Shown here piece after piece: positions 3,128 through 63,150 of a stretch of DNA of 64,000 nt. The translations under genes and the position numbers were made by a program. Where the stretch lies: positions 5,181,994 to 5,245,993 of the forward strand of contig CAJINV010000001.1 in assembly GCA_905178155.1 (NCBI GenBank), read 5' to 3'. The stretch's first letter is position 1, and each line of letters starts with the position of its first letter. The notes under the pieces were generated by a model. The model made no database searches. It was not told the origin of the DNA and saw nothing but the letters and a program-made list of their open reading frames with translations. Source of the DNA: Amoebophrya sp. A120. Lineage: Eukaryota > Protista > Dinoflagellata.

Positions 3128-3141
3128 GCTATTTAGATTTA

Positions 3142-4122: not shown

Positions 4123-4276
4123 GCAGTTTCAGGGCAAGATACACAAACTACTTGCAATGCAATTTGTAATGCGGAAATCCGCTCACTATGAGAAAGGACG
4201 TGATGCTTTTGCAAAGGATACTCAGACCACGGGACGACGTCGGCCTGGCAGCCGGCCGCGAACTGCAGGATGACTC

Positions 4277-7873: not shown

Positions 7874-9226
7874 TTAGTCCGAGTCATCACTTGAAGATCC
7901 GAAGTTGGAAGAATCATCGGTCTCTTCGTATGTGCTTTCCATGTCGCTGTCTAGCTCGATGTCCTCGCCCTTCTGTTTCTTCTCCAGAACTTTGTTCTCC
8001 TTCTGGTATTGCGCCAGCGAGGCGCTCGCAGCTACTTCCTGTTCCGGTGTGGCACGCTCCACCTCACAGTTCTTCCCGTTTTCAAACTCTACCATCTTCC
8101 TGACGAATTCTTGCCGCGTTTTGGCGACGAAGTACTTCTTTCGGGCGGCACACGGTTTTTTGTTTTTCTGTTGCTGATCTTCCCCTTCATCTCCATTTTG
8201 CTGTTGTGCGCCTGCATTTCCGGAACCAGAAGGCTGCTGCTCGTCGCCCGGCTGCGCGGCATTGCGCGTGTCCGCACCCGCGCGTTGCTTGCCCACACGC
8301 TCGCGCGCGCCCGTATCTGCGTGCGCGCCCGTGTCTGCGCGCGCGGCCGCACCTGCGTGCGCGCCCGTACCTGCGTGTGCGCCCGTACCTGCGTGTGCGC
8401 CCGTACCTGCGTGTGCGCCCGTACCTGCGTGTGCGCCCGCAGGCGCGCTCGCCTGCGCCTGCCCGCCCGCGCCTGTACCCGCGGGTGCACGCCCGCGCCC
8501 GTCACCCGCGTGTGCATGTGTGTGCACGCGCACGTGCCCGCCTGCGCCTGCATGCGCACGCGCGCCTGCATGCGCGCCCGAGCCTGATGGTTGTGGTGGT
8601 TGGATCCCGACTGCGGCAGGTACTGCTCCTGCTGGTTGTGCGCCGTTAGGCCGGACCTCGTTTCTGCGGTCGAAGGGAACTGCTTTTTCAAGATTCCCCC
8701 GCCACTGTTTTTGTTCTATCTGCCAGATGCCGTAAACCCGGTCGCCGAGCCCATTGGCCGCGACTTCAGGCATCCTAATAGATTGCGGCACCTTCCCCCA
8801 CTTCTCGTCGCGGGATCGCCGGGTCGGTGAGTCGATGCGCGCGTTCCGCAGCAGCCGCTTCTCCTTCCTCAACTCCCTGTTCTCCTCTTCCGCGTTCTTC
8901 GACAAACAGATGTCGGTCCACGGCATGACAGTGTACTTGCCGACGATGCGATCATGATCCGGGAAGGTTTTGGCCGGCTTATAGCCAAGCCGCAGATTTT
9001 CAGTGTCGGGGACGCCGAGATCGTTCACCCGGTGCTGATAGTAGAACTCGGATTCATATTCGGTTGACGGTGCCATGTGCCAGAGCCTCTGCCTCTTCGA
9101 CGTGTCCATGTGGTAGAACTTCAGGTGCGTGGAACCGTTCTGGACGACGGGTCGAAGCTGCGGTTCTTTTTTTTCCCCCGCCTTCTTCGCATACTTTGCC
9201 GGCTGGTCCTCGTAGCGCGCGGACAT
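7874..9226 (-). CDS. Hypothetical protein (450 aa) with an internal Ala/Gly/His repeat region
   Basis: Uninterrupted ATG-to-stop ORF containing about four copies of an 18-bp repeat (GAHAGT) at ~8361-8438, and an acidic C-terminus. Confidence 0.7.
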   Translation of the reverse strand: MSARYEDQPAKYAKKAGEKKEPQLRPVVQNGSTHLKFYHMDTSKRQRLWHMAPSTEYESEFYYQHRVNDLGVPDTENLRLGYKPAKTFPDHDRIVGKYTVMPWTDICLSKNAEEENRELRKEKRLLRNARIDSPTRRSRDEKWGKVPQSIRMPEVAANGLGDRVYGIWQIEQKQWRGNLEKAVPFDRRNEVRPNGAQPAGAVPAAVGIQPPQPSGSGAHAGARAHAGAGGHVRVHTHAHAGDGRGRAPAGTGAGGQAQASAPAGAHAGTGAHAGTGAHAGTGAHAGTGAHAGAAARADTGAHADTGARERVGKQRAGADTRNAAQPGDEQQPSGSGNAGAQQQNGDEGEDQQQKNKKPCAARKKYFVAKTRQEFVRKMVEFENGKNCEVERATPEQEVAASASLAQYQKENKVLEKKQKGEDIELDSDMESTYEETDDSSNFGSSSDDSD

Positions 9227-9546
9227 TGCATCGGAAAACCAGCAGCACTATGCACGGAAAACCAAAAGTACGTCGTGGAGATAATAAAGGGCCGTCTGTG
9301 CTGCGTGGCTATTGATCTTGTATGACAAGAACCTGCCGTGCTTTCTAGTCCATAATTGTTGTTGTTTGAGTTGAAAAGCGCAGCCTAGTTGTACTAGTGC
9401 TAGTCCTATTGTTCCGCGCATGACAGATGCAAACTACCACCATTACTAGCATTACAGATCTACATTGTCGCGACCCGCTTCACAGACTGCCTTTATTGTG
9501 CCGAGCAGCTTGGCTCTGGATGCCCATGCTGCATCACAAATTCACT

Positions 9547-9779
9547 GAGATTAGTCTTTCTCATGCAGAATGAGAGCCAGCACTGTGATGCCCATGTACA
9601 TGATGATGCTGATGCTCGTGCTGAAGCCAATCTCATGCAGAATGAGACTAGTCATTCTCATGCAGATTAGTTCACGTTGAAGCTCTTCTCATGTTGAAGT
9701 CACAAATTGAGATTAGTCCTTCTCATGCAGAATGAGAGCCAGCATGGTGATGCTCATGTACATGTTAATGCTGATGCTC
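9547..9779. repeat. Degenerate direct repeats built on the hairpin motif TCTCATGCAGAATGAGA
   Basis: A ~70-bp unit occurs at ~9547 and ~9708. The core motif (TCTCAT/ATGAGA stem) also occurs at ~9632 and partially at ~9656. Confidence 0.8.
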
Positions 9780-9789
9780 AAATGCAAAA

Positions 9790-11150
9790 CTAGTAGCAGG
9801 TGCAGGCTTGTGATCCGGCCCTGCATGACAGAGAAGATTTGCATGACAAATCCAGCACCTGCACTTCCACTCCACGACGTATTTTGGTTTTTTCCGAAAC
9901 GGATACCGTGACACCAAAATCGACCGACATCCGGAGCTGATGCCCCGGCGGCGCATTCCCGTCCGTGTCTTCCACCACCTCGGCCAGAAGAGCGCCCTGC
10001 TTGGTTTTCTTCAGCACGAAGTAGTACTGCATCTTCTTCACGGGCGTTCCATCGCGGTTCCACAAAGGCATTCCCAGAATGTCACTAACCCGAAAGTCGA
10101 AGACCTTCATGTTCAGGGCCTGACCACCGTAGTTTGTGCGCGCGGCCCCACCCCTCGCCTTATCACCCCCGACGAGAGGCGCCGCCTCGGGACAGTCAGG
10201 CCGGGCAAGTACATCAAACAGCTCCGCAACCACACGATGCGGATTCTCTTCCGGCCGGACCTCGTTTCGCAGCAAGAAGTCGCTTCGGTCCGAAGTCAGC
10301 GGGTCGCCGTAGATCCCCTTCTCCTCCAGCAGCTTCCGAATTCTCATATTTGCACTGATCGACAGGCAGTGGTCGTTGATGAAGAGGAACTGCTCGAAGT
10401 CCAAATCTTTTCCCGCCCCCCGTCTGCAGAAGGTGCGGGCGGATCCCAGCAAAATGCCGATGAGACCGCCGGCCTCCCGCTTTACCCAGGAAGTAGTGCT
10501 GTTCAAACTTTCGGCGATCTGACTGCTAGCGAGGAAGCCCCTGACGACGGGACACAGATTTCTGCAGAGCTGTTTGCTCCACCCGACATCGACACGACCT
10601 TGCTCGAGAGCTTCGAGAACATGCTTCAACTCCAACCGGAACAACTTCCAAACCTCCAGTGCCTCGAGTGGCATCTGCGACCGCTTCGCCTCGGTGGCGC
10701 ACGCCGCCAGCAAGTCTCGAATAGTTGCCGCACGCTCCGCTTTGTCCTTCGAGAAGAGAAACGCCAATCGGTAAGTTGAGCTGGGCGCGCCTGGATGGTC
10801 GCCGAAATCCGGATTTCTCTGGATTTCTTTTGAAGACCTAAACCAAGCCAAGTAGCTGACCAAGCGCAGCGCCGGGTGGCGCGCGCGTGGCCGGCCGTCT
10901 GATCGCGGGTGCGCTGCTACGAACAAGCAGTGCGCACCGCGATAGCGTGGCGTCGCGGTGTATCTGTGAAGCACCCAAGCTCCTTGTTTATTGCAAACAA
11001 GCCAAAGAAAGTGCAAAGATCAGAGCGAGGTCATGCAGTCCAACATGCACAAGATCACGTTCTTTCCGCCTCGAAGTAGTTACATCATGCATTTTGAGGC
11101 ATTGAGTTGGTTGTGACATCGATACAGTGCGTGGCATGTGCAGCGCATGC
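9790..11150 (-). CDS. Protein resembling the C-terminal half of a hAT-type DDE transposase
   Basis: Long GC-rich ORF. LCPVVRGFLASSQIAESLNSTTSWVKR (~10480-10560) fits the hAT C-terminal L..PaSSa.sERxFS pattern with the catalytic E. No D/D/CxxH motifs seen upstream. Confidence 0.45.
10961..11124. mobile_element. Degenerate introner (TATC...GATA), 164 bp
   Basis: Imperfect TIRs; 5-bp flanks CGGTG/CAGTG. Removing element + 5 nt gives HMPRT-ATPRYRG in frame. Confidence 0.55.
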
Positions 11151-12238
11151 ACAATCAGTGTTCGATACAAATTAGACGCATCGAATAAAATAAATTGTAG
11201 CACTTCGCAAGAGTTTTGTTTCCAAATAAGATCTTTTTTTTCCAATCCGCGTCCGCCAAACCGCGTCGTCCGGATCTACAGCAGCTCTTCCGCTCCACGC
11301 GCTGCTATCTCGGAGCAGCTTCTCTCCGCTCCTCCTACTCAAAACTGCACTCCTGCAGTTCCACCTTCTCCATTCCGCATCTACAGCTGAGCCGCAGTGT
11401 GCGGTCTCGACATGTAGCGCGTGAACGTGCTACATCGTGTTCGCAGCGAAGGCATCATTATTGTTTTGTTTTTGCATACAAATAGCACGCGCTCTGACAG
11501 TAGAAAGTTTTTTCGCATGATTATAACACAGACGGTGCGCAAATGATGCGTTTGCGAACTTTTCAACACTCCAACACTATAACCGCTGTCTTCTTTCTTT
11601 CAAACGGGAACACTCCTTCAATTTGAGGCCCTGTTTCATTATGACGCTGTTAGTTTATTCATGTTTTTACCCATAAAAATGTGAATCAACATTGGTTCAC
11701 TTTCGCAAACTGTCCTCTACTTTCGATGTTGTCGCTGCAAATGGTGCATTTGCGTGCACTCTATGTTCTTCTTCGCTCTTACTGATTGTTCTGTGCATTT
11801 TCTCCAAATTTTGCATTTGATCGAACCAATGATGAATACAGTTGTAACTACAGAGAAACCTATTCTCCCGATCTATATTCCCGTATATGGTTGTCAACTT
11901 TACTTTGTAGTGCAATCGTACAGTCTGATCAGGACAAAAGTTTGACAACAAATAAAACGCGATACTGTGGTACTCCTCCTTGCACACAATCACTTCATGA
12001 ACTTGATATTTTTTCACTATAGATAAAACAAAAACGCAAGGAGGACACGCACAGCACGCCAAATGCTATATGGTCGCGGCGGAGTGACAGTGCGAAAAAT
12101 TTACGATTTAATCTCTGTATCTTCGGCAGCGATTGTTGTTTTTTCGAGTGCAATAATTGAAGCTATACCGATCTTCTCGAGTATACGCTATAACTATTTC
12201 GAACGAAGATACACGATTTTTACTCTTCGATAAGCAAC

Positions 12239-15200
12239 CTAGTCATCGTCCTCCTCAAACAACTGCTCACCCCCTTCCTGCATCTCAAAGTCGTCGTTCT
12301 GCGCCGCCTGGTCCGCCTCCGGCACGGCGGCCGGCGGGGCCACCGCCGCCACGACCGCGTCGCCCACCGTCAAGTTCAAACCGCCGGCGTTCTGGGGGCG
12401 GGCAATGTCCTGGTTGACCATCGTGTTCGCCTGCGCCGGGAATCGCTTCCGGATCGCGGAGAAGATCAAGCTCTTCGGGCCCGCACTGAGGAATTCCCAG
12501 GTGTCATCCAAGTTCTCATAGACGTCCCGGGCCGGCTGTTCCTGACCTGATAGAATTGTTATTGCGAAAATTGCACGCGCTTTTATATTCCGAACGTGAA
12601 GATTGGTACTTTTCAAATCGCTGAAAATAAAACAGCGAGCTTCGTGTCGTGTACCTACACAGACACAGTTTTTGCATCATGCGACGTGGCTATTTTGCAG
12701 ATCACCGAAAGCAATAGCAACCTATTGACCGACGCCTATTCTTATTCCTTTTCTCGCCTGTGACTCCACCTCTCAACTCTCAAAAAGAAAACAAACATCT
12801 TTACCGGCGGCCAACAAAGTCTTGCACTGTTCGTAGTCACCGACGAGGTCCTGCTGCCGGAACCCCGCCTTCATCTGCTCGTACTCCACGAGGATCGCGT
12901 CCAGGTTCCGGGTCGTCAGCGGCTGCTCCACCCGCTCCTCCGCGGCCAGAAACTCCTTTGCCTTCTCCTCGTCCTGGTCATTGGTGACGGCGATATGCTA
13001 TGCAAAATTGGTGTATGTGAGATATCTTTTGCCACTAGAATATAAATTGTGAGAGGTAAACTAGTGGCATTTCTGTGAAGACAGCTGCTATTTTGCACCC
13101 GCGTGTGTATTTTCGTTTTGTGTATACAAAGAAACTACGGGTGCAGGTGGTGCCTCAAAGCGAGAACCCCGCTTCCATCTGTGGTAGTAAATATGCATGA
13201 CAAAATGCCAGACTGTGGCTTTGATTCTCACATACACTTGTTTTTCGCGATGCATAGTAGCAGTCGCACAACAGCATGGTGTTCTCCACCAACGCGCGGT
13301 ACACGTTGTTGCCGGTCACGGACAAACCCTTCAAATCCGCCTTGATGGCCTCCACCTCCTGCTCGAAGCGGTGCTGTCCGGTGGTGCGGTCGTACACCTC
13401 GACCAAGGCCAGCAGCTTCTCCTGCAACAACTTGATGTCACCGCTCACCCGGTCGAGGTCGAGCTTCGTGATGAACGACTTCGATTTGGACTGCATGTCG
13501 GAAGTCCAGCTCAACGGCAGCTTCGTGGCAAAATGCATGCCGGTTCCGGGCGCGTGCAGCCGTTCGTGCAACTTCAACATGGTCGCGATGGCGGGATGGG
13601 GAAATTGGGCGCTGTGCATCATCTCATTCTTCAACCGCAAGAGCCGGGCGCGGAACCACGGCTCCAACTGACAGTGATTTTGTATGAAATCACGCATGCG
13701 AGGTATATGGCTCGTGATGATTGATGTTGGTTTCACACAATAAAAGTCTTATTTGCAAACACACACGCGACGTTCAAGTTTTTCCTTTCTCTCACCAGCA
13801 ATATCGCGACGCTGGGCCGCATAACTCTAAACCACAAAATTCCACATGTACAAACACAAATGTACCAGGTCCTTCATCTCGGGGGTGGCACCGACCTGGT
13901 AGCCGGCCGATTTGATCGCCGTCCACACAAATTCTTCAGCACTTTCACTGAAATTAAGTGTGAGGGACAAGTTTTCCGGTGTCAATCCGTGGCTCGCGTC
14001 ACCGCGGAGGAAATGCATGATCTGATCACTGCACAAGTCCAATCGCTCCTGCCCCGCGGCAGTCGCGATCGCCTGATATTACGTTTTTTCTTCGATCAGG
14101 TATTGCGCATGATTACGTTTATCACAACAGCATCACGTCTTCTTCACAAATCACTCATGTGTTTTGATATGCAAAGCATGAAAGTGTGAACAATACCGGC
14201 TGGATGCCGTGCCAGAAGCGGAACTGGGCCGTGTTCTGGAGGTTCTGGGTGATCACGAGGCTCACCTGGTCGAGCTATGAAACGGAAATTACCACACTCT
14301 CACGCTTTTTTGGATAGCGCGACCACGAGATGTGCATGTCAAATCTGTAATGCAAACTATTCTGAGGCTCCGCGCTATTCAAAAACTCAGACCGAATGTG
14401 GTGAATTTACACGACATATTTCCAACCGAGTCATCTTCTTCTGGGAGATGCTCTGGACCAGCAAGTTGCAGCTCCGCTTCAACTCGACCAACTTGGAGTT
14501 ATCGCCCATGCAAAACATGCGACCGACGCCCAAAGTCCTGTTTTGGCGTATTGCAACGTATACTAGAGCGCAATCCTGAAGTTCAAAACTGATGCTCTCC
14601 ATTGATTTGCATGCGTGTTCGTCCTGCTTACAAAATACGTCACGCATGGTCAACGTCTATCTACATGTTTATAAATACCAGTCACGCAACTTCTCGACCG
14701 AACGATTGTGCCCGACACCACCCCGCTGGCAATGATAGACACCGGTGACAAAGGCTTCAGCGGCCATCAACTCCACGGTCGGGTGGGTCTCCAGGGGCAT
14801 GATGGTCATGCAGTGGTTGCAGATGTGGAGCGCACGGCGGGCCGTATCGCTGTCACTGATGGACGTGAAGCGATCGTGGCAGTGGTCCTGATATAAAGGC
14901 ATTTTGTGATATTACATCTGCATGTGAGCTAGGTGATCTTCTTTTCGTGTGTGCGCAACGCATGCTTTGGAAGTCCACACGGTCAATCTCCTCTACTTTT
15001 CTCTCACTCACAAACCAAAACTCGAAACTCAGGTAACAAAAGCAGTACCAACACGATGTAGATGTCCTGGATCTCCATGCCCTGGATGTCGTTGGCGTTG
15101 AACCTGATGATCGCGACATGCAGGCGGTCGACGCGGATGATCGCGGTGCATTCGCGCACCAGAGCGGGCACCATCTGCAACGCCTTCGCGAGGACCTTCT

Positions 15201-15818
15201 CGTCGGCCAAGTATGCGATGCAAATTGACGTACTTTTTCACCACAGAGTCGTTTTTTTTTGCGTCATCTAATTCTCAGGAGTCGTTGGTGAAGACAACAC
15301 TGCAGCTCGAGCTCCTGCTTTCTAAAATCATCACTGCATGATAGCAGTGCTCCGCATGGCGACTAGTGTGCTGCGTCTGCATGATTGAAATACTTATCGC
15401 ACTAGCATCACATCCTGACACTCCACATGCATGCTCTACGCGACTCTGTGGTGACAAAATAGTACTAGATTTTCAAAGCGTATGTTTTGCAAGCGGTCGA
15501 TGCCGTGCTTCGGAAGACGAGACAAGACACCAATACGGGCAGCGATCTTGGTTTTGATCTTGTCGTTCACTTTGATGACGTTGCGGAGGGAGTTCACGGT
15601 GGTGGCCTTGTTCTGTGGTATTATTTGATTGTCATTTCATGATGTGAAAGTAGTTTTTTTCAGTAGAAGATTGGTTTCAGAATCTACACTCTCATCACAC
15701 TAAAAAATCACTACAAAAACAAAGCGCATACCTTGACCCGGGTCGTTTTCATGTACTCCTCACACAAGTCGTCCGTGTTCTGCTTGCGCAAAGCGGGCTG
15801 CTGGGTTTTCGGAGGCAT
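12239..15818 (-). CDS. Multi-exon (~10 exons) orphan protein with acidic C-terminus
   Basis: ATG at 15818 (MPPKTQQPALRKQ). GC-rich exons join in frame through GT-AG introns and two TIR introns, ending ...GGEQLFEEDDD*. Confidence 0.65.
12994..13256. mobile_element. Degenerate introner, 263 bp
   Basis: Left end TATGCTATGCAAAATTGGTGTATGTGAGA matches reverse complement of right end TATGCATCGCGAAAAACAAGTGTATGTGAGA. Element + 5 nt removal joins LLCDCY-VTNDQDEEK in frame. Confidence 0.75.
14276..14418. mobile_element. Degenerate introner, 143 bp
   Basis: Long imperfect TIR (TATG...AAATT.ACCACA...TTTTT.G.ATAGCGCG). Element + 5 nt removal joins TRLE-(D/N)QVSLVITQ in frame. Confidence 0.7.
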
Positions 15819-17510
15819 TATTGATTGAGAGTTGTTTGCTTTCCAAGAAGGAAAGTTGCTTTTTAGTTACTTACCACAGAGGGCAAGAAACACAGTTGCT
15901 GCTAAAGCATTTGGTGTGAAGGAAAAGTTTCAATATTGTCACACTGCCCAAGTCTTATGTCTCAACCGACGCGCGCCTGCATTGCAAGCGAAAAAAAACA
16001 CATGATGAAAGTTCTCTCTGAAACAACAAGCAGCTCAGCCAGCTCGCTTGATCTTTACACATCATGATGGAAACACACAGCAGAAGATAAGTTGTAAATC
16101 CAGAAGCGCACGGCTGTCATAAATCTCCTTTTCAACATTCAAAACAGGTAGTGCCGTTGACGTTGCTGTATTACGTGATCGCTGTGTGTGAAACTCGTGA
16201 ACAACCAAAAAAACGCAGAAACACACTCGAGAGCTCATCATGCCTCAGTGGTAGTAAGGTACTGCTCTTCATTTTCCCTTATGTACTTGTGATGCGTTTT
16301 AGAATTTTTGCAATCCCAGTGTACAAATGCTGCTTTTTCATCATACAAAAATGCTTCTTCATCATACACATGCTATTTTTACTTCTAATTCTTTCACTTT
16401 TATACTTGCGGTTCTGTTTCTACTATGCTGTGTGTGTGCCTTATCTACTTTGTGTTGTTTTCCTCTGTATTCTACTCTTCGCGCTATACATTATTTACTG
16501 TTGCGCTTTAGATTTACACTATCAACTCACAAAAGTTGCAATCTCAGGTTCGCCGTCTGGAAACCAGTTACGAAGATGCAGGTCGTGGTCTCCCCGCTGA
16601 CCAAAGCGTCCTGCCCAAGGCCCAAGCTGCGACGAAGGCGTGCATTTCGAACCTCCACCTGCAACGCGGCACACTCACACGCCACGTCGTTCCTACAGTG
16701 CAGGAGCAGATCCTGTCAGCGGGTAGGCGTATTGCGAGCATCCAAGCCAAAAACCGCAGGAAGCCTACCAACGGCCGTCGTCCCGCAGTGCGGATGTAGT
16801 CGCTCAGGATCACAGCGACATGCTCCTGATCACCAAGAAGCACGACAATCTTCGGGATCGCAGTCGCGGTCTGCGACGGAGGATCAGCTGATGGCGACGG
16901 CCGTATTTCCAATTTCGACGCAAATAGCGTCGTGGTAAAAGCCTCTAAAGGCGTATCTGCCAACGCGAATGCGTGGCCCAAATGCCGGCTTCGCCAACCA
17001 GCCCGCAGAAGTCCACAAAAGCACTTCCACGAGGCCCGCCTGCCAGCCGTTCGTCGCGGTTTCCAGTCCGTTCTCCACAGATTGCTCGACTTCCGTGAGT
17101 TGATCGCGTAGGTTTTTTGCTCTTGTGTAAAATATTGATAAAGTGTCACTTTTCTATGGAATTGTTTAAGTTCTATTTAATAATTCTGAACTTTCTGGAT
17201 TTCTATTTCCATCAAAGATGGACTTCTATTCTCCTACTTAGAAATATATGATTTCCGACCAGAGATGGATTTCTATTTTTGCGACTTTTCATGAAGCCAA
17301 GTCGGAGGCAATTGAGAGCCAAATATCAGACTTTTTTTCGCCCTTGTAGAAGGCGAAACATTGAGGTCGACGGACGATTTTGCATGTTATTACGAGTATC
17401 ATCTGCTACATTCAAAACTACTGCTTTTTCTTAATACTATGCAACTATGTAGGACTGCACGTCTTCCACCTGCAATACGCACTGCATTCCAGCGCAGTGC
17501 GTGTTGGTTT

Positions 17511-19200
17511 TTACGCCAGGAGCTGCGAGAGCTGCTGCTCGCTCGGTTCCTCCACAATGCCGTCTTTCGGTTTCTGCTTTCTGCTCCTCTGCTTCTTGTT
17601 ATCGATCAACAGCTGCTTGTGGTCCGGATCAAGCTTTTCATCTTCCTCCACAAAGTCCTCCCACTCGGTAAGCAGCGACACAGACGGATCGCAGCACCGC
17701 AAGGTGTTTTCGTCCATGTGCAACTCGGCATCCACCTGGGCGATCATGGTCTTCATCCCCGCAGCAAGACCGTACGCATGCTGCTGCACTTCCGCGATGT
17801 ACTTGTCGCACCGCGCCTTCACCAACTGCTCTTTACCTTTGCCGGGCAGAACGGTATTGTCGTCGCTGTGCTTCTTCGCTAGTTCGGTTATAAATCGCAA
17901 CCTCACACACCAGCACTGCAGCAGGGCTTCGCACCACAAAGCCCCCGCGCTCTCCGCGTAGCGCTTCGATCTTCCGGGATGTTTGGTAGCTTCCGTCTTC
18001 AGGTCCAAGACGCCACTTTGGAGCAGCTTCGCGGCCGTTTTCTTCACCGTTTTATCCGTCACCTTCGCCTTCAACCGCATAGAATCACGACCGGTCGCGA
18101 TCTTGTCGCTTTTGCTGGTGTTCTCCTCTACCCTGAACCCATCGACGCGGGTAGGATGGAGCTGTGCTTTCACGTACTGCCTCTTCTTCACGAAGAGGTC
18201 GTACTCCAGCTGCGTAAGCTGACGATCGTCAGCTACATTTGTCTTTGCGTGCTCCACTTGCGACTCCACCGCCTGCGTCTGTGTGGTAGCAACGGAAGCT
18301 GCAGTCTGCTGCCCGTAATCATCATCCTCCTCGATGTCTTTTCCCACCGGCACCGCCACGTTGTCTGCTCCTTTCAACACGTAGATCTTGTCAGTGGCTT
18401 TCGGGTTGACGGCGGTGGAAAACTTCTCTTTCAGCGACTTCTCCACGTTCTCCTTCGCCACCGCCTTGTCCCACTTTGACAGTGTGGACCAGTTCTCCTC
18501 GATCTCCTTCGATTTTGCTTCTGTGGACTTGACTTTCTGGCTGCCCTTCAGCAGCTTCAGCTCCCCGCCCCGCTTCACCCGCAGTGCCGCCTGGTTCTGT
18601 CCACCGCGCTATCGTTCTCAAACGCGCAGCGATCAGTCGCGAGCAACAAACATGTTTTTGTCATGCAAGGTCTGTGCCTCAAGCTCTTGGGATGGCCCAA
18701 GAGTGGTCGCAAGCACAACAAATGTGCAAGATATAAACTAAATCTGTCATGCGCTTTTGCTCTGCAGAGCTTCTGCTAGGTGGAAAGCAGTTCTTCCGTG
18801 GTATGCCAAGAGCCTGTATTTGCAACAGCTCTAGTTTGTTGCTCGCGCCTGATCGCCGCATGTTTTCCGTCTTCGTACGACGACTTTCACCTTGTAGAAA
18901 GGGTGCAACTCGCTTAGGTCGTAGTCGTTTGGTGTGTCGGAGTACAGTTCTTTAATCCGCACGGAGAACTGCTGATCGGCGTCAGCGTTGTTTGCTTCTT
19001 TCCCACCGTCCAAGCCTTGTATCGGCAGCGCCTTGAAAGCAGCCGGCGCCAAGGCGACGTCGATCACCAGGAAGTCGTGCAGCTCATCATCGATTTTGTT
19101 GCGAAAAGATGTAATGAGCATCGGACACAGCAGGTTGCCGATCTCCCTGCCTTCTTCCTCTATCACCGCGTCGATATTGTCCTCCCCCAGTCAGTATCCG
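17511..19200 (-). CDS. Hypothetical charged/coiled-coil protein, at least two exons
   Basis: ORFs 18831-19166 and 17511-18578 join in frame (FYKVKVV-GGQNQAALRVKRGG) after removing the TIR intron at 18610-18877. Confidence 0.6.
18610..18877. mobile_element. Degenerate introner, 268 bp
   Basis: 23-bp subterminal inverted repeat GCGATCAG(T/G)CGCGAGCAACAAAC; TATC left end; frame restored by removing element + 5 nt. Confidence 0.7.
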
Positions 19201-19430
19201 CTGTAAAGTGAGCCACAATCTGTAATGCAAAAGCGCGCTTTCATCTGCGCCGGACATGCAGCCTAGTTGGCTACAGAAAGAAAAAACTCAACATCTTTTA
19301 GAGCTGTTGTCGTGTTAGTTTTTGCATGACAAACTCCTACTCATGCGGAAAGTATTTTCATCGCTCTACCGGGCGGAAGTTTGGTACGCCGTACCAATGC
19401 ACAGGCTGTACTGTCGCTGCAACTTTTGCA

Positions 19431-22400
19431 TTACAAAGTAGCTCTTTTTACATTGGATAAGTCGCCGTCCTCATGCAGCTGCAGCTCTTCTTCTTCCTCC
19501 ACGTCTTCATCAAGCCCACCCAGCCCGAGGTGCGCGATGTCCGCCAGATCCTTGGGAACAGCAGCCTGCTTTCGCAGGGCTTTCACTTTCTCCTTCTGCT
19601 TTCTTACCCACCGGGCTATTACGACGGCAGAAGCTGGCTGCGGGCGAGACCACACGGTGATTTTCCCCGGAGCCGAATGCTGCATCTCGCTGGTGGTGCG
19701 GTTCAAACGCGCCGGCAGGATCTTTCGCCAGTCCTGCTTATCATCGTTGTACCGCATGGCAACAGCAGCTTTTGTCTTCTCGTAGTAGTCCTTCTCCACT
19801 TCGACAACTGCTTTGTGCCGCGGCTCGTCATCATCCTCCGCCGGAGCCTCGTCTTCGTCAGACACCTCCTGGTCGATGAGAACGTTGTCTTTTCCCATCC
19901 TCCGGGCGAGGCACTCGTACTTCTTTCGCTCCGCGCTGTTTTCCCACTTGTTGTTGCGGTACGTGCGGCTCAGATGCGGGTACTGCGCATCCGGAACGGC
20001 CTCCGTGCATCCTGCTTTGTCCTTTTTCTTGAGGTCAATAGCGCGCGGAAACGCGTACTGCCGCTTTGCTTTTGGTTCTCCTTCCTGTGCTGTTTCCTCT
20101 GCGCCCTTTTCTTCTTCGAGGATGGTGCTCCACTCTTCCTCCACAGCCTGGTAGGCACAATTGAAATCGCGCCTGTTGCAGTGGCAGTCCGCGCCCGTGG
20201 TTGACTTCAAGCCGAACCTGCTCGCCTTCGCACCATTTTTCCACCGCCCTATTTTTCGTTCGATGTTTTTATTCGTGCGATTCCGCTTTTGCAGGTACAA
20301 GCAAATCCGCTTCAACCGGCTTTTTCTTTTTTTTTGGGGTTGGTGCAAGTACCACTTTTTCAACGACACTAGTGCCATGGTGCCCGGATCATTGACGACG
20401 TACCTCCGCATATGCATTGCAAAGTGCACATCTTCACATAAGTTGCGTCATGAGGTGCGTCTCGTTTTGCCATGTCATGCATGACAAATATGAAAAAAGA
20501 AGTCACAAGATGTGATGCAGAGTTGCAACTTATGTGAGTATGTGCATTTTTCAAGTGATAATCTTCGGCGTTTTCCAGCCTGGTAATTGCGCCTTCTTCG
20601 TCGTTTTGGTAATCAGTTAGCCACTGATCATGCGCCGACATGCATCCATCGCGGTACCGTCCAATCGAGTAGGAAGCCACGAGGCACAGCTGTGCCACAT
20701 GCCGGAAATGGTGTATCTGTTTAGTATTCCAAAAACAATTTTCAATGCGCATACTTTGCATGACAAATCAACTTATCACGCAGCCTAAAAAGATAGATGC
20801 TTTGTATTGCATGACAAAACAGAACCAGTACCAGTTCTAGCTGCTTCGGGGAAAACGCCACTTCGTCCGTCCCTATTCCGCACAGCATGAATCGCACATC
20901 CTTCTCGACCTGTTCCGGGTTATGAAGGTGCTGCAGTGTCGCCTTCACTGCTTTTATTAAATCCCCCATCCGTTCCGATCGGCCTCTGTCCCCGTTCCGA
21001 AGCAGGTCCGCATTGTATCCATCGATTGGTGCGCATATGAGCATGATGAAATAGGTGCAAAGCAGAAAGACGAACTGCAAACCTGAAAATTATTTATGTA
21101 TCATTTTCGTGGCTGCGAGCCATGTGATGCATCAGCTGTTGATCGTGCATGATAGATGTTCTTTTGCATTAGAATTGCGTTTCGTTTTTGAGTGCCAAAT
21201 TGCGGAACTGCTTACCTTCTTTGTGCGACATCGACACCTCGAATTCGTGGGTTAATACGTAATCAGCGCCGAATTTGATGGCTCGACCTAAGCCTACCAT
21301 CAACCGACCCAGGAACCACGCCGACGCCAAAACGTAAAGCCCGCAGGTTCCTATCACCGTCAACCATCTTGTCCAGATGGGCTTTTTCCAGCCTTTGTAG
21401 ATCCGGTGTACTGCTTGGAGAGTCTGCTTTTTCCCGTTTGCTTTTACCACCATTCGTTGCATCCTGATGCTCATTTCGCGGAGCTGCTTCTTCTTGCCGT
21501 CTGGCACTTGCACTCGATCTAGAAATCCACTCAGATCGGGATCGGGTTGCGCTTGTTCGTGCTCATGTCGGGAAACAATAAACGCCGGAATTTGTGTTGC
21601 GATCTGCTCGTGTATTTTCTCCTGGAGCAGAGACACCGACAAAGCCTGTAAATTGTATTAATTAAATTAATACAGTTCCCCATTTGTCATGCATTATTTC
21701 TGCATTACAAAAAAAAAAACGTAGTACCTGGCACCACAGTCTTTTCTGAAACGCCACCGGACACAAGCCGACGAGCGACAGGAAGAGGTCCGCGGTGGTG
21801 TGGGCCGTAATAGCAGCTTGGTGGCTCATGCACCGGTCGGGCCAAAACACCACCTTTCCTACCGCGGCCGAATTCAAGAACCAATATCCCAACCAGAACA
21901 ATGTATTTATTGTACTGCCGCCCGAGTCGCTGCACGGCGACCATATGCAGCAGGTCGTTTCTGGAATGGCCTTGAACATCTCCGTGGGATCCCTCAGAGA
22001 CCAAATTTGGTCTGCCACCTCGTAAGCTTCCGGGGTTATCGCTTGCAAATGATTGCAAGCTCAGCAATACAATTTTGATCAAGGTGCTACGCATCACAGT
22101 TTTGTCATGCTATGTCTACCTATTCCAAATCTGTCATGCAAAAACAAATTGTATTGCTTAGGATGCAATCACTTTCAAGTCATAAAATATCCCCTAAAAC
22201 ATGACTTCCGGTCGATTCGCTTCACGCCGTAGTTGGCCGAGTTCGGGTAAAGTATCGTGTGCGCCGGAATGAAGAGCGATCCGACGTCTTGTGTCCCCGC
22301 AACACAGAAGACGATGCAAGCGCACGTGAATATCAGGTGGCCGAAAATCCTGATTTTCCCTTCCGTCGCGTTCCGCCAGCTAAGCACTTGCGAAGTGCTG

Positions 22401-22700
22401 CCGTCCGTTTCGATTCGGGCGTGCGCGACGGTTATTTTTTGCTTCGCGGCGGCGCTCAAAGCAGCTTTTTTTGATTCTTCTCCCAGCAACCCAGCACATC
22501 TCCATAGTTTCCGCTGCTGCATCTTGTTTTTCGTTTCGAAGAAGGTTGCACATTCTTCCGGCTGGTACAGTTGCTGCGTCGACGCGGCACAGGTCGATTG
22601 GGTGCCGCTCAACATTTGAAGCGAAGACTGCGCGGCGTCAATTATACAAGTGTCTCGCTGCCCTTCACCGCCGAAGAAGATGCTTACTTTTGTACTTGCA
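19431..22700 (-). CDS. hAT-like DDE transposase B (multi-exon; 5' end uncertain)
   Basis: Ordered motifs IETDGST (~22400), PCSDSGGS (~21925), RCMSHQ = CxxH (~21830), KPIWTRWLTV (~21365). Exons joined by one GT-AG intron and TIR introns. No clear C-terminal E motif found. Confidence 0.6.
20411..20560. mobile_element. Degenerate introner, 150 bp
   Basis: 36-bp imperfect TIR ending ...TGCACAT..TCACATAAGTTGC. The direct repeat is lost, but element + 5 nt removal joins LENAE(D/E)-RYVVNDPG in frame. Confidence 0.75.
22037..22184. mobile_element. Degenerate introner, 148 bp
   Basis: 39-bp imperfect TIR (TATCGCTTGCAAATGATTGCAAGCTCAGCAATACAATTT vs TATGACTTGAAAGTGATTGCATCCTAAGCAATACAATTT). Removing 153 nt keeps the frame. 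Confidence 0.75.
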
Positions 22701-23438
22701 GGTGGAAGACGCGCGTCACGTCGTCATTTCGTTTTCCAACAATAAATTATACATGTACAATTATACAGGTCGTTCTTGTACGAAACAAAACTAAAAAGGG
22801 CAGGAATGCGCACAGTGTGAAAGTGGGGTCACTGCTTTTTGCATTTCGTATGTATGCAACACTCACGACCAAAACACAGAGGACTTCTCCGCAATAGAAA
22901 GCTAAAACATAAGAAAAAAACCCAGCAAATGCCCCTCGAAGAAAGTAACTCGATGTTCTTTCAGCTGAGATTCTGCACTCTATATTGATTGAACACAAAA
23001 AACAAACCGATGCGATGGTGCGTGCACCATCGCAAAAAAAAAAAGCTTTGCATTCATTTCGAACATGGTTTTTGTATCATCAAAACAAACAACTTGCATG
23101 CGTTTCAGGTAGTCTTCTTTGACATCTACGACGTCAATCATCATCTTCATCCACTTGCATAAACGTCGACACTGTGGCCGTCGCAGCTGCTCGTCCCCGT
23201 TCTCGCCGATGATAAAACTTCTCCCCGCATCGCAGCTTCGAGGTGTTCGCGTCCCATGGCTCCACCGTCGCCGCGTCGGTGGGGGAAAAGGAAAACAAAA
23301 CTCTTGCGAAATGCATAATCATATTTTATTTGATACACCCGTCGCTGCGTCCGCCGTCGTTAACTGCAAGTCGTGTCCGTCACTTCTCGACGTCGCGCTG
23401 CCGAAACTCAACACATACGCAGGTCAGGGGATGTAGTG

Positions 23439-25520
23439 TCAATCTGCAAGACGATGGAGCTCTTGCGGATTGAAATGAACACTGGAAAGGCGATAACGCA
23501 GTCCATCGAACACAAACAAAGAAAGACGATGGCCACGCGTATGCCTCTCACGACGATCGAAAACGACGAAACAGCCCAAAACGAAACCAAAAGGGATGAC
23601 AAAACCAAACAAAAAAAAATTTTTTTTAAACAAAAAAATCCAATAGAAATCCGGACGAAATCCTTCATCCAGCGCGCCGAGCTCAAGGTAAGGCCATGCA
23701 CGAAGGGGAGAATGTCGTAGGTCCATCTCCTGTATCATGGTCCAGAACATTATCGCGGCGACCGGCGCCAGCCCCTCTGTGGCGAGACCGCGGACCGTCA
23801 TGCCGCCGATGGTGACGAGGAAATCCGTAACCCGCTGAAACAAGTCGACCTTGTGACACCGCGGCAAACTGTCAACAAAATCCGGTATGCTGGCACCGTC
23901 CAATTCTTTGGAGCAACTGTGCATCACGACGCCCGCAACGCGGTCTATCTCAATCAGGACGAGACTCAACACGCGGAGCCCGCCCCACCACAGAGGCTTC
24001 CCGAAGGCAGCTTTGGCCCGGTTAAGAAACTTCCGGCTCTTCTTCTGCAGCTTGTCATCACTTTTATCCAGAACTTTTTGGACGATGCTCTCCTGCTGCC
24101 TCCACAGCCCCGTGATACACTTTCCCACCGAAAGCCAGCGCGTCCGAACGAAACCGGTGACACGCTTCACGACCGACTCCGAAGAGCGAAGCTTGGTCTC
24201 CAGCAGCCTCTTCTTCGCGAGCAATTTGGGGTCGCTCGCGATGCGCTCCTTGTGGAATTTCTCCTGCTCCACCGAGGTCATGTGGTGCAAGCGTCTCTTC
24301 GATTCTTCGTCGTCGACGGTGTACAGCTCGACCAGCAATTCATCAGTAGTTTTTTGCCCCCGGACTGTCCCTTTCCTGTCGTTCGCTACCCGTCGCGGGG
24401 CGATCCACAAATTGACCGTCTTGGAGACCGCAGTTAACGTTCGGCGAAAATCCAGCCGCAGCAACGATCGCTATGCTGAGCAAAAGCTAAAGTAAGTATC
24501 GCTCTCGCAGCAAAAGCAAATGCAAAACGAAACTCAAACTCAAAGTCAAAAGCAGTCGCAAGAAAAATAATGCATCACAAGTTCCGCTGCTGATGTTGAT
24601 GCTGATGCTGATCAGCATGACAAACTAACTTTTAGTTGGTACGCAGCATGAGAAATCTAATCTCGCCATCATTGCTGGCGAGTTTCAATTTTGATTTTCT
24701 CATGCGATTTCTACTAGTGCTACTACTACTAGTGCGACTGCGATACTTTACTTATACTTTTGCAAAGCATAATCCACACAAGGTGACCATTGTGCTCGCG
24801 ACAATGTGGGCCAGATGCAACTGGCACTGGAGCCAGCTCACATTCCAGTGCGGCTCCTCCAACCGTTGGTCCGGGTCGTAGAAGCGTTGCGCGGTGGCAT
24901 ACTCGACCCAGCACTTGACTGCTTTTTTCACGTCGGACGCGGAGTCGGATGTGCAGATGAGCGACGGCCGCATTTTCAGCAGCTTGTTACCGACGCGACA
25001 CACCTTCGACCACATGCCGGGTAGCGGGAATCCGATGCTCCACGCGGATTCGTACAAATCCTGTAAAAAAACTTCATGGCCGGAGCCGGTGGATATGGTG
25101 GGCAAAACGGTATCGTGGGAGTAAACGATCATGGGGTCGCACCAGTCGCTTTTGTAGAGTGTGGCCCAGCAATTGAGGGCCTTGATTTCATCGCACGGGG
25201 TCGCGTCCGGGGAGATTCGTATCCCCACCTTCGGCCGGTTTTCTGCCTGACCCAGATCCCCCTTCACCCCCGTTCCATAGAGGTAGCCGGACTGCAGCAG
25301 ACGATGCGAATTTTCATCACCAAATGATCCCAGGTCCGGGGCGGACGGTGGAAGGAAAGTTGTTTTGACCGAGCGACCCGAGCGGCTGGCTATTCTGTTC
25401 ATCGTTGCCGAAGCCAAAGTTCAAAAAGGCGTCGAAGCCATCCCCACTGTCTCCGCAAGCCGAACTCGCCGGCTGCGTGTCCACCTGGGCAGCAGGCTCC
25501 TCCTCCTCCTCTGGTGGTAT
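23439..25520 (-). pseudogene. hAT-like DDE transposase A, probably decaying
   Basis: Motifs ISPDATP (~25205), CTSDSASDVKKA (~24945), QCQLHLAH = CxxH (~24820), VRTRWLS (~24140). Two ORFs join via the introner at 24472-24771. In-frame TGA at 25421-25423; ragged 3' end. Confidence 0.65.
24472..24771. mobile_element. Degenerate introner inside transposase A, 300 bp
   Basis: TIR TATGCTGAGCAAAAGCTAAAGTAAGTATCGC vs TATGCTTTGCAAAAGTATAAGTAAAGTATCGC; flanks ATCGC/ATCCA. Removing 305 nt gives VTLCG-SLLRLDF. Confidence 0.8.
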
Positions 25521-25902
25521 TCGTATTACATGACTGCTTCAGCTTTTTTTTTCGTTTTCTTTTTCAATAGTTCCGCTTTCGACTACAAGCACAGGTCGAT
25601 TTATGTTTAGCATTACAAACACAACTACTACTGCAGTCAGAACTACTAGAAATAGAGTATGAATCTCGATCGAAACTAGTTCTACATTTGCAACTCGGCT
25701 TCACAATAGGACTACGAGTAGTGCCTCGAGTTTGAAACTGACAATGAACGCGAAGAAGATGAAGCTCGGCACCAAGATCCAGATGAAGTTGAAGAACAAG
25801 AACTGCTACTGGTAGTCGTAGTGGTACTGCGTGGCAAAGTAAAAGTATAAGTAAAGTAACACGGTATAATAGTAAATGTAAAAGTAAAACTAAAAATGAA
25901 AA

Positions 25903-27639
25903 TCAGGCACCACTCAAGGATGGGAGCAGGGTTTCCACCTTCTTCTTTACCGCCTTGCTGCTTTTGCCCGCCACCGGTTGAGACTGTTTTTTCTCCGCCT
26001 GCTTCAAGACGGATTTACTCGGCAACTGCTTCAACAAGGTAGACTTGGACGCGCGCACGCCACGTGCTGCTGAACTGCCGACGGCTGCGCTTCCCGAACT
26101 ACTACTGGAGCTGCTGCTCGACCCCGCGGTCGGTGGATCCGGGGGAAGATACTCCGCTTCGAAGTCGAAGTCGTCGAACGTATTCATATCACTATCCGCA
26201 GGCGAGATGGATGGCGCCGCTTGATTTCGCAGAAACTCGTGGTCAGTAGCACGAATGCTTTGCTCTCCCGATACCAAGTCACCGGACCCGAGAGAACTTG
26301 CTGGCAGCAGATGGCGCACAGCCGCCCCTAACTGTGCCAAGGCGCCAGAAGATGAGAAGCCGCCCACGTTCACGTTCTGGCTGCTGTTGATTTTGGAAGC
26401 GGTGCTGTTATTGTTCTTGTTCTTCGACGTACCAGGGGCAGCACCATTACACTTCGCATCACCGGCGGTGGAGATGCCGCTTGACAATAAGAACGAAACC
26501 AACCGGTTGCGGGCAGCAATCCGTCCGGCGTCGAAATACTTCAGCTCCGACCGAACTGCCTCCTTTCGCTCCTGGTCCGCTTCTTTGTTCCTGTCCTTCT
26601 CATCTTTCTGGGCGATAATTTTTGCTGCTTTCCTCGATATGCCGCCGGCTGCTACCTTCACATCATCACCGAACAGCTGGCTGCGATGATGATGGAACTG
26701 GTCGTCGTCCAGGTTGTAGTCGCCACCGTCGGGCAGCACCAAAGGAGCGTCATCTTCGGAAAGTCCCGCGTCGGTTATCTCAACCTCTTCGGCAATTTCC
26801 CGCATGACCCGCACCCGCCCGTTGCCCTGTTTCTTCACGATCGTTTCGTCGGCAAGAATATCGTCCTCCTCGTCCTCTGCCTCAGACTCGGAAACCTCAG
26901 CGTGGCGGTGGATGACGACTTTTTTCTTCCGGCGCGGGAGATTGAAGCAGGACTTGGAACTGCTCCGCTGCGCGTGATCAACGCGTAGCTCCGCCTGCCC
27001 TTGGGTAATCTTTTTGAACCGGGAGAAGAGGCCGGCACTGCTGGCGATTTTGAAGGTCTTGTTCCGCGCCTTTGCGGTTCCGCCTAAACTTTTCCCCAGT
27101 GCGAACCACTTGTACTCCTTCTTCCGGGTCGACTTTAGGTGCTCGAAGTTGTTGTCCTTCTTCTCGGGGTTGTTGAAGTACTTTTCTGGGTTCAGCGCCA
27201 AGTCCTGCGCAGCATCCAGCGAACCAGACGCACTACTACCTCCTGTCTCACTTTCCGCAGCTGGTGCTGCGTTCGGATTGGGTTTTGCGACGATCTTCCG
27301 CGTAGCAGCGTCGCCGCGGTCGATCGGCGCATTGAACCGGTCACACTGGTCTCGCACAAACTGTTCCCAAGCTGCCTCGCCTTCGACCACGCGGTCGGCC
27401 TTGAACGCGGAGAACCGCTTCCGCAAAGTATCCGACGTTGGCACGAGGGAAACGTTCTTGCTCTTCCTATTGCGTTTCAGAAACGCGCCGGAAGTAGTGT
27501 TGCTGTTCTTGTCATTCGGGTCGAAATAAGCTTCAAGAAGCCTCTGCAAGTTGGAGTATTGTTTGCCCGAAGCGCCAACTTGTTCACCAAAAAACCCGGC
27601 GTCTGCCCCGTCGCCCTTCTCGGCTGCACGTCGTGGCAT
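25903..27639 (-). CDS. Hypothetical basic, low-complexity protein (~578 aa from ATG MPRRAAEK)
   Basis: Long uninterrupted ORF with NLS-like stretches (PRRKKK, KRNRKSK) and acidic tracts; lies directly upstream of transposase A. Confidence 0.65.
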   Translation of the reverse strand: MPRRAAEKGDGADAGFFGEQVGASGKQYSNLQRLLEAYFDPNDKNSNTTSGAFLKRNRKSKNVSLVPTSDTLRKRFSAFKADRVVEGEAAWEQFVRDQCDRFNAPIDRGDAATRKIVAKPNPNAAPAAESETGGSSASGSLDAAQDLALNPEKYFNNPEKKDNNFEHLKSTRKKEYKWFALGKSLGGTAKARNKTFKIASSAGLFSRFKKITQGQAELRVDHAQRSSSKSCFNLPRRKKKVVIHRHAEVSESEAEDEEDDILADETIVKKQGNGRVRVMREIAEEVEITDAGLSEDDAPLVLPDGGDYNLDDDQFHHHRSQLFGDDVKVAAGGISRKAAKIIAQKDEKDRNKEADQERKEAVRSELKYFDAGRIAARNRLVSFLLSSGISTAGDAKCNGAAPGTSKNKNNNSTASKINSSQNVNVGGFSSSGALAQLGAAVRHLLPASSLGSGDLVSGEQSIRATDHEFLRNQAAPSISPADSDMNTFDDFDFEAEYLPPDPPTAGSSSSSSSSSGSAAVGSSAARGVRASKSTLLKQLPSKSVLKQAEKKQSQPVAGKSSKAVKKKVETLLPSLSGA

Positions 27640-29162
27640 CCTGGACCAACACGTGTGGAAAATTTGAACAAGAGCTGCTATTCCGCCGACAGTTGCAGCA
27701 ATGACGAAAGAGACCACGCAACCCCCCACCTAAGCGGGTGCCAGCTCATCACAACCTCGGAAGGACATCACGACCATTGATTGTTGCATTTGATGCTCTG
27801 GCAGTTCTATCCGAGAAAGAAAAGAAAAGCAGTAGTAGACGGAGGAAAACTAGGAAGGTGTTTTTACTTTTTGTTTTTCTTCGGCTCATCAAAAAGATCA
27901 AGATGTGTACTAATTTTACTGCTTGTCAAAGATGAGAGCTTCGCTTCTTAGTTTCCTTCTTTTCAGCGTGAGAATGCTTCTGAAATACTAATACAAATAT
28001 TGCAGTCTGATGCCCCTTGACATCTCTGATAAACTTCTGGCTACATATGAGAAAACCACGTCAGAGTCAAAATCTAAACCACTAACACAGGGCCCACGTC
28101 TCACGATGCCCAACAGCTGCGCAACGATAGCTTCCCCCCAACGACACGATGCTGAGATTTGTCGCTACTTGTACGCGCACGGCTACACGGATGCTTTCAC
28201 ACACACGTCGAAATCGACTCCGAGGACCACGACAGCTGAGCTTCAACTTAGTCTTTATTTGAAAGTCTGGCATTGCGGAACGACGACCCAGTAGATGAGC
28301 TTGCGACTTTGACGCACACATTTACGACGACGCCCCACGATCAAAACGATACGAACGAAATTGGTCACAATGCTGCTCGTTCCCCTCCAATCAACACACG
28401 AAAAGCAGCCGCTTCACAAAAATCATAAGAACTACGTCGAGATGTGGATCACACACGAGCTCGAGACTCGCGCTGTGGTTGTGGCTTTAAGATTTTTTCA
28501 TAGTGGTCTGCTTTTCAGCGTTCCGTAAGCGAACACCGGCAAAATAAAAAACATAAAGGCCCACGAAGCACGGCTCAGAGCTACTCACTACTTGCTGTAA
28601 TTTTTGTAATGCATGTGAAAGGGGGTCGAGCTGTGCACTTTCAAAAACATTCTGTCATTGTAGAAGCTCAGAATAGCTTCAAACTCTCGATATGTTTTTC
28701 TCGGCTGCTGGCAATGAAGATCTTGTTTTTTGCCATCCACGAAAATCAACTTTCGCCACCGCAATGTAGTACGTGAAGCGACATCATGTGCGAGACCACA
28801 CAAATGATCGCTTGCTTTAACACATGTAGCGCGATCTAGATCAACAAAACCACGTCGCCAGGATCATGCGCCTCAAGATCTTTCTGCGGCGAACACATCG
28901 AAAACGCGACGATCAAATAGCAGCTTCTTCTCTTGCTATCGAGACCGCAACTGACCGAACCAATGAGGAGACGGAAGGAAAAGAAACAGAAACGAAACGA
29001 AGACGAAGGGATGGAGCTGCCAAACGGAAACCGACCTTAAAAAATGCATAGTTAAATCTAGCTATTTTTATAGCTATAAAATCCGGAATTAATAAGGTTT
29101 TGTCCGTCCATAACCAATCATGAAGACAAGAGACAAGAGTATAATACGCTACTAGAGAAATA

Positions 29163-60275: not shown

Positions 60276-61399
60276 CGGCGTATGCAGCTACCCCGAAAAA
60301 CTTGAGGTCAACAAACCTCGAGCACTTCGTAAATATGTATATGTTATTTTACACGTGGCGTGTAGAGCGAACTACAAACACTGTCTGTATCCGATGCCGA
60401 TAGTAAATCCTTACTTTGTTAAACAAAAATGTTTGGTCGTTCGAGTTTTATTTTTACACGAATGGAGGTACTACAACTGCTAGCAACGTTTAGCGGATTT
60501 GCACAACGGCGCGCGTGATCCCCTGACTTTGTTCCGAATGATGTCGATGTGTCTTTGCATTTATGTACTGGCACGCTGGCGAAGACCACGAAAAGACGGC
60601 TCAGGGAAGTTCGAAGAGGAGTAAGAATCTTCAATGCTGATCTCTAGAATCTATGTGACCGCCTTCACTAGAAGGGTCTCTTTCTGCACTCCCACTGCAG
60701 GAGCAGCAGGTTGGGCTTAACAATGACCTGATGATCCTTGGAAGATCTAGAAGAGGGCTCTGCATCCTTGCGAAAATGACTCAGAGCAGGGTTATATTGG
60801 TCCAAATCGGAACGGAATCAGAGAATACAGCCACGAGTTGATCAAAAATGCAAAAACACCGGTTTTTGCTCTTTGAGCAATCCCAATGTCGGAATTGGAA
60901 AATCAACATGTGTGCGCTTTATTTCATAAGTACATCCGCCGCGCATTCCTAGCGCACAGCAACTTGATCATTCGAGGACGTGGATGGGCGCCATAACCAC
61001 AGCCAGATTCCTCCGGAAAACGCCATCAGAAGGGTCTGGCCCATGGCATCATCGCAGTCTGTCATGACAACCCAACCCGACAAATTTGTGTGTTGACCAT
61101 AGAGATTTGCAATACTTCCATGATGACAAAAAGTTCTTTCGTGTGATGGTGAGATTGGAAAGTGCCAGTGTCATTCAGAAATGATTCGTTTTTGATCTTG
61201 TTCAACGGAAGCTCTAAATGAGCATTGCGACGCCCCGCTTTCTCTGACTCTTCAGCCCAAGGCCCTGGCAAGAGTAACTACAGCTGGACAACCTCAACCA
61301 TCTCTATCTATAAACATGGGTGAGTATTCTTCTACTAGAGGTAGAGAAAAAGTGTATCCATTATATCAACTTACGTCGCCCAGAATTGCTGCCTCGAGC

Positions 61400-62982: not shown

Positions 62983-63150
62983 CCCTCTGTCTCAGCCCGG
63001 CGAGTGAGGCTGTCAATCTTTTTTCCGTCCGTGCCAGCAGCAACTTCTCCACCTTTCTCGGGTATTTACAAAAAATGTTGAGCTTTGTTATTTTGTAACT
63101 TTGGAATGCGAAAGTGAAGAAAATGCTGCTCCTATGCAAAGCTCTTCTAA

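Follow-up and report, generated by a model that had tools for sequence, protein, structure and literature searches.

Which enzyme moves the introners of the dinoflagellate Amoebophrya sp. A120 is the question raised by a 64,000-nt stretch of its genome (contig CAJINV010000001.1 of assembly GCA_905178155.1, positions 5,181,994 to 5,245,993 of the forward strand; hereafter the window). A sequence-only reading of this stretch had recognised two tandem hAT-like transposases, A and B, and had proposed them as autonomous partners of introners with TAT...ATA terminal inverted repeats (TIRs) and 5-bp target duplications. The locus holds a 12,911-bp element with TTG...CAA ends inserted in gene A. We consider it probable that B is the transposase of this element, that A is the broken transposase of a second element of similar size, and that neither moves introners. 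The locus itself does not identify the introner mobiliser, which may be another divergent hAT that lies hidden elsewhere in this genome.

The inner element and its empty site

The inner element (10776..23686, 12,911 bp) carries gene B and a further gene, C. Its ends read TTGAGCT...AGCTCAA, and both flanks carry GGTAAG as a perfect 6-bp duplication (10770..10775 and 23687..23692, plus strand). The left TIR (TTGAGCTGGGCGCGCCTGGAT..., 10776..10832, plus strand) is imperfect and about 57 bp long, and the right one (TTGAGCTCGGCGCGCTGGAT..., 23631..23686) lies on the minus strand. Their alignment scores 57, a value that none of 5000 random window pairs reached (maximum 47).

The corresponding empty site is present in DNA run X1, where an exact joint, 10769->23687, skips 12,917 positions (10770-23686) with 6 letters that fit either side, at a depth of 14.9. 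A further contig, from a diverged paralog about 83% alike (6369 nt, depth 19.3), links 10709 to 23688 through 61 letters, as many as an empty site requires. The filled site is covered by one DNA contig over 10746-22247 with no differences (depth 21.4); over the flanks and the rightmost 1.47 kb of the inner element depth rises to 31-42, with 2-9 differences per contig. Bearing in mind that read depth is not equal to copy number, depth and differences fit two copies of A, one filled and one empty, along with a second, partial copy of the right end of the inner element. Contigs of the presumed RNA sets at 23047-23686 (depth 7-14) hold this right end unspliced; they differ from the window in one letter and in the flank, and therefore derive from that second copy. 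The inner element was inserted recently, its empty site still being present in the culture's DNA. Two observations count against this reconstruction: the short side of the exact joint comprises only 24 letters, and the contig over the right end runs on unbroken past the point at which the second flank is expected to diverge, a behaviour not fully explained.

About 400 bp inside the left end and 350 bp inside the right end lie 42-bp subterminal sites (11180..11221, plus strand; 23293..23334, minus strand) that are inverted partners, 81% complementary (blastn E 1.6e-4), each of them an imperfect palindrome. Positions 11180 and 23334 were rejected as the element's ends because no duplication is found there. 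Three copies of the end motif TGGA(T/C)TTCT at 17196-17275 surround the exact midpoint of the inner element (17231), and this cluster is possibly a central binding site; the motif has 9 sites across the whole window. A 15-base end pattern was matched at 120 loci in viral contigs, with a best score of 48 versus 57 between the two real ends, and these matches were taken as chance. No recombinase was found in the inner element; for tyrosine recombinases this was a weak test, with no match on single exons. Gene C (12239..15815, minus strand), a multi-exon cargo gene modelled from its frames, contains TIR introns at 12994-13256 and 15231-15464.

Gene B

Gene B (17511..22723, minus strand) is predicted to encode a hAT-like transposase in eight exons (22185-22723, 21728-22031, 21216-21645, 20832-21082, 20561-20716, 19460-20405, 18878-19189, and 17511-18604) with 1343 open codons, splicing being modelled from the open frames and the 5' end not fixed. 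It thus extends two exons past 19431, where the earlier reading had set its boundary. That reading was right that inverted-repeat introns break up both genes: five of them, with TAT/TAC...ATA/GTA ends, lie in A (one) and in B (four), and the frame is open after removal of each. It needs correcting in that three of the seven introns of B are ordinary GT-AG introns and the first three motifs of A lie in a single exon. The four old TIR introns of B are introns 1 (22037..22184), 5 (20411..20560), and 6 (19195..19459), all TAT...ATA, and intron 7 (18610..18877), TAT...GTA.

Each of the five TIR introns was cut out as the element plus 0-8 bases. Removal of the element plus 5 or 8 nt keeps the frame open in all five, and removal plus 2 nt in three; five introns in the right frame would occur by chance in about 0.4% of cases. 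The A and B frames likewise stay open if the excised segment is the element with one base on its upstream side and four on its downstream side. The 1343-codon frame of B opens only with an extra length of 5 nt modulo 3 at each of its four TIR introns. In four presumed-RNA contig sets and two raw RNA runs, neither A nor B had exon coverage or splice joints, a 187-nt piece at 22637-22823 being the sole exception. Since host genes at 30364-31134 and 32812-33483 are equally blank in these data, the blank is uninformative on expression of A and B.

All eight motifs that had been named for A and B (SPDAT, TSDSAS, CQLH, and TRWLS; ETDGST, CSDSGG, CMSH, and TRWLT) are present in minus-strand frames where they had been placed. 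The in-silico spliced frame of B contains D107, D215, CMSH at 247, TRW at 373, and E609, that is, the D-D-E triad with CxxH and RW of the hAT superfamily, in order and with A-like spacing (108/32/127/235 in B, 87/40/127/237 in A, and 84/47/139/234 in the A homolog P0001). This motif chain was matched by 1 of 5000 shuffles, a figure that overstates the case because the pattern was set after both proteins had been seen. Several results weigh against the assignment of B. No homolog was found in a protein search with B exon 3 (a word-based query against longer proteins only), its exon frames have no Pfam or PHROGs match, and B does not match the A profile, 15 of 60 shuffles scoring as well. A and B had been described as one family, which the direct comparisons do not bear out (blastp E 0.18, hmmsearch E 0.03, hhalign probability 0.3%). 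The hAT-like nature of B is therefore upheld by motif order, spacing and context only, with no detectable sequence similarity to A, and we regard it as likely on these grounds.

The lack of any homolog, family match or profile match could also mean that B is a passenger and that the 12.9-kb element was moved in trans by another enzyme, and the second copy of the inner element, which seems to cover its right 1.47 kb only, is compatible with this. However, B has the full D-D-CxxH-RW-E chain, with the same 127 residues from CxxH to RW as A and 235 versus 237 from RW to E, its 1343-codon frame is intact despite decayed intron flanks, and no other DDE-like frame was recognised inside the inner element. 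We consider a passenger role for B quite unlikely.

With B as the transposase of the inner element, its precursor messenger RNA would be spliced at three GT-AG introns and at four old introners, the latter removed as the element plus 5 nt. The protein would bind GGATTTCT-type repeats at the termini of its element and cleave by an RNase H-like D-D-E active site, aided by CxxH and RW in the manner of Hermes; the ends would then be joined to the target at positions staggered by 6 bases. Introners would have landed in the A and B transposase genes as passengers, and would be tolerated there because the cell, as proposed, splices them out. Such an element would apparently depend, for production of its enzyme, on the non-GT-AG splicing that is still unexplained.

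The 6-bp duplication, present with an empty site, sets the inner element apart from canonical hAT elements (Ac, Buster, and Tip), which are characterised by 8-bp duplications. A 6-bp duplication together with a hAT-type transposase is shared with hAT6, to which the inner element is likened here by duplication length alone; hAT6 (Kapitonov and Jurka 2007) is placed within the Blackjack/animal lineage in the cited passages of PMC12730594. Since no sequence link to hAT6 was found, the 6-bp length may be independent.

Gene A and the candidate outer element

A and B had been described as a tandem pair. They are nested, A being split at 23687/10775 by the 12.9-kb insertion that holds B. The 5' part of A (23693..27639, minus strand) comprises a long low-complexity N-terminal exon (25914-27639), with a probable start near 27639, and exons 24772-25510 and 23693-24466, separated by an old TAT...ATA TIR intron (24472..24771). 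The first of these two exons holds D-D-CxxH and is thrown out of frame by 4 extra bases near 25342; the second holds TRW. Because the empty site is in frame (WPY-RLAF), A continues, beyond the limits first given to it, at 10775-9790 (minus strand). This 3' part contains the last catalytic motif, AESLNS, with the catalytic glutamate, 13 kb away beyond the insertion, and the homologs P0001 and P0003 both align across the junction. The motif PTDAATVE at 23290 was rejected as the site of A's glutamate, since the homologs point to AESLNS. A probable last exon lies at 7874..9247 (minus strand), reached by an in-frame GT-AG option and matched by P0002 at 8690-8812 (E 2.7e-5). The splicing of A is predicted from frames and homologs.

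A search with A exon 1 among 1.84 billion proteins returned three relatives (E 1e-21 to 1e-14, 33-41% identity), two of which are Amoebophrya AT5.2 proteins. Rebuilt A aligns with P0001 over 582 columns that span the insertion point (30%, E 1e-53). Both aspartates and CxxH are kept in all four sequences, TRW in three (not P0003), and the glutamate motif in three (not P0002), so that A and P0001 have the complete D-D-E triad with CxxH and RW of the hAT superfamily. In a model of the P0001 core, built from a 6-row alignment, the RNase H order of elements (three strands, helix, strand, helix, strand) is followed by a helical insertion of Hermes type. In a comparison with 48,161 chains, no chain but Hermes reached Z >= 8 (Z 11.4, rmsd (root-mean-square deviation) 3.8, 168 aligned; next 7.3), where helical matches under Z 13 can be generic. 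A second fold comparison placed Hermes at ranks 1-5. The Hermes alignment begins with the CxxH cysteine on Hermes residue 265. The catalytic residues of Hermes are D180, D248, and E572. The histidine of its CxxH is H268 according to the cited passages of PMC4763223, which also give the role of CxxH and W. The homologs and the predicted fold support well the hAT-like nature that had been claimed for A.

The caution about generic helical matches weighs against this assignment, as do several further points. The model is of a homolog, with a mean predicted local distance difference test score (pLDDT) of 53.9 and under 50 in the E region, and Foldseek gave no match at E <= 0.001, Hermes ranking third (E 0.099). 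No BED finger or PF05699 domain was found in the exon frames or in three full homologs; divergence may hide them. Of other transposase types, Transib ranked low (38) in the Foldseek search and no Mutator chain was among the matches listed, by which Mutator is not excluded. A single-sequence fold of A exon 1 reached a pLDDT of 38. Pfam gave nothing significant in 11 frames of the region and was blank also on the three full homologs. Word-based searches, made against longer proteins only, found no homologs for A exon 2 or the 3' part of A; a metagenome scan with A exon 1 yielded 43 candidates and no relatives, and sequence searches of the PDB gave no match.

Hermes (hAT; PDB 8edg, 4d1q, and 6dww) shares with this locus the order D-D-CxxH-RW-E, the RNase H-like core with a helical insertion, being the best fold match of the A family, and a TIR-bounded element with subterminal repeats. 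It differs in its 8-bp duplication (6 bp here) and in that the proteins here are 1300 to about 1800 aa long with long extensions, have no BED or PF05699 match, and are encoded with non-GT-AG introns in elements that span about 13 kb and carry a second gene, the inner one with TTG ends.

The copy of A in the window is dead, by insertion and frameshift. A near-identical copy elsewhere in the DNA (run X1) has neither the insertion nor the 4 bases at 25342, and an upstream 608-codon frame then joins A. All 13 coding differences listed between the window and this near-identical copy (from 40 of 258 rows) are non-synonymous, so that these copies show no sign of selection, a point against the reading proposed here. 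A paralog about 83% alike is also present, with 442 extra letters at 10338-10418 and a skip across A's intron at 24461-24871, which suggests that intron positions differ between the two.

A candidate outer element lies at 3134..29060 (13,010 bp without the insertion), with ends TAGATTT(A)ACTAT and a flanking 6-bp repeat, GCTATT (3128-3133 and 29061-29066). Besides A it includes another multi-exon gene, at about 3142-6057; single exons of this gene and of gene C have no Pfam or PHROGs family match. The outer pair had the best score (12; next 5), reached in 1 of 200 shuffles. Weighing against these ends, they consist of a 14-bp repeat for which no empty site was seen, and they also parse as AG...CT with an 8-bp repeat that has one mismatch, 6 bp being the mismatch-free parse. 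Position 29112 was rejected as A's end, having no partner.

If the outer ends were due to chance, A could be a host gene domesticated from a transposase and lying within a segmental duplication of recent date. Besides the shortness of the ends and the missing empty site, homologs of A exist in a distant strain, and the AT5.2 models in the alignment lack motifs (TRW in P0003, the E motif in P0002). However, a near-identical copy and an 83% paralog of A exist, A and P0001 keep all catalytic motifs, and the best TIR pair with a 6-bp repeat, whose score only 1 of 200 shuffles reached, encloses A and one more gene just as the inner element encloses B and C. We regard a domesticated gene as unlikely and retain A as the probable broken transposase of the candidate outer element.

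Polinton/Maverick elements also exceed 10 kb and have inverted ends and a 6-bp duplication, as do the elements here. They differ in that the single exon frames here gave no integrase, polymerase B, ATPase or capsid match, the inner ends are not AG...CT, and the catalytic motifs are hAT-type.

Introners and other features of the window

The length of a target duplication is set by the stagger of the enzyme. Miniature inverted-repeat transposable elements are classed by likeness of TIR and target duplication to a partner transposon, according to the cited passages of PMC6004678. Those of PMC7789003 (Farhat et al. 2021) state that A120 introners start with TAT, with a published pattern of TAT-N7-AAA. 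The window contains 30 non-redundant candidate short TAT...ATA elements, seven of them with a perfect 5-bp repeat. The five TIR introns of A and B begin with TAT, as published, and are old members of the A120 introners (cited passages of PMC7789003 and PMC12130899 (Gozashti et al. 2025)). The introners here are 150-900 bp long, non-coding and with 5-bp duplications, whereas the elements that carry A and B end differently and have 6-bp duplications. The flanks of the introners within A and B are decayed: inside both large elements 0-3 of 5 flanking bases match in seven of seven introners, and outside them, where alone perfect copies are found, seven of nine are perfect. The decayed flanks indicate that the introners in these elements are old passengers.

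Since the element of B has a 6-bp duplication and TTG ends, and the candidate ends of A are TAG...CTA with a 6-bp repeat, A and B are likely not introner mobilisers. The idea that the autonomous partner is one of these two enzymes or a near relation, moving TAT...ATA introners in trans by way of the TA tip, draws on both being predicted hAT-like DDE proteins in an introner-rich genome, on the candidate ends of A beginning with TA, as introners do, and on the true ends of A and of the 83% paralog being unproven. The sequence-only reading was also correct that a hAT5 group making 5-bp duplications exists; the cited passages of PMC12730594 name 5-, 6-, and 7-bp hAT groups separately. However, B's element lacks both the 5-bp duplication and the shared TAT-N7-AAA...ATA ends of a hAT5-type partner, having TTG...CAA ends and a 6-bp duplication at an empty site. 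Compared with nine young introners, its ends reach scores of 8-18, at the level of the background (median 13, 95th percentile 19), and its end motif GGATTTCT occurs in none of the nine. Within the window, A is not enclosed by any TAT...ATA pair that combines a 5-bp repeat with a convincing TIR, the best of 285 TA[TC]...[AG]TA pairs with a 4-5 base repeat that span it scoring 7, versus 13.5 for the inner element. Neither large element has ends that fit TAT-N7-AAA (cited passages of PMC7789003). Termini unrelated to the introners, which the sequence-only reading had named as refuting its proposal, are accordingly seen for B's element and probably for A's. The A family also occurs in AT5.2, and AT5 introns are reported as 99.98% GT-AG in the cited passages of PMC7789003, a figure that is weak evidence because it comes from gene prediction. 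We judge a role of A, B or a close relative in moving introners very unlikely.

The cited passages of PMC7789003 list two putative transposases in A25 and none in A120, which was said to rule out general mobilisation by a transposase. With two divergent, introner-broken genes missed by Pfam in a single window, this argument is unsafe. In the cited passages of PMC12130899, the A120 family fam135 (4 copies) has terminus matches to hAT6/hAT5 and is classed otherwise, and no Amoebophrya row is classed hAT among the rows listed in its supplements. No description of these Amoebophrya hAT elements was found in the literature searched, to whose scope Repbase reports, Roy et al. 2023 and bioRxiv supplements did not belong, and sequence look-ups gave no look-alike of the locus. 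A120 might harbour a hidden clade of giant, Pfam-invisible hATs with genes that become readable only through non-canonical splicing, one member of which, elsewhere in the genome and with TAT...ATA ends and a 5-bp stagger, moves some 30,000 introners. We give this only a modest chance; if true, introner spread would depend on the splicing of introners out of the mobiliser's own transposase gene. The A-family profile and B can serve as seeds in a search for the true mobiliser, by removing each element plus 5 nt, searching, and reading the ends.

One family of young introners has five copies in the window (43573-43834, 31973-32243, 42899-43151, 43232-43482, and 31595-31845), 67-80% alike inside, and run X8 contains a related end at another locus. 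The motif TGTCATGC has 30 sites at 8923-59542 in either orientation; it is found in seven of the nine young introners and also in GT-AG introns of B, but is absent from the terminal 500 bp of both large elements.

Several repeats lie outside the large elements. A 46-bp direct repeat (29163-29208 and 30361-30406, 98% alike) surrounds a GC-rich insert of 1.15 kb located where a host gene ends, and a 68-bp direct repeat (33698-33765 and 34776-34843, 97% alike) has its copies about 1 kb apart. A tandem duplication of about 850 bp, 86% alike, occupies 46377-48055. The frames at 59373-60287 and 62056-62991 are paralogous, the second with a weak match to M35 metallopeptidases (E 9e-7).

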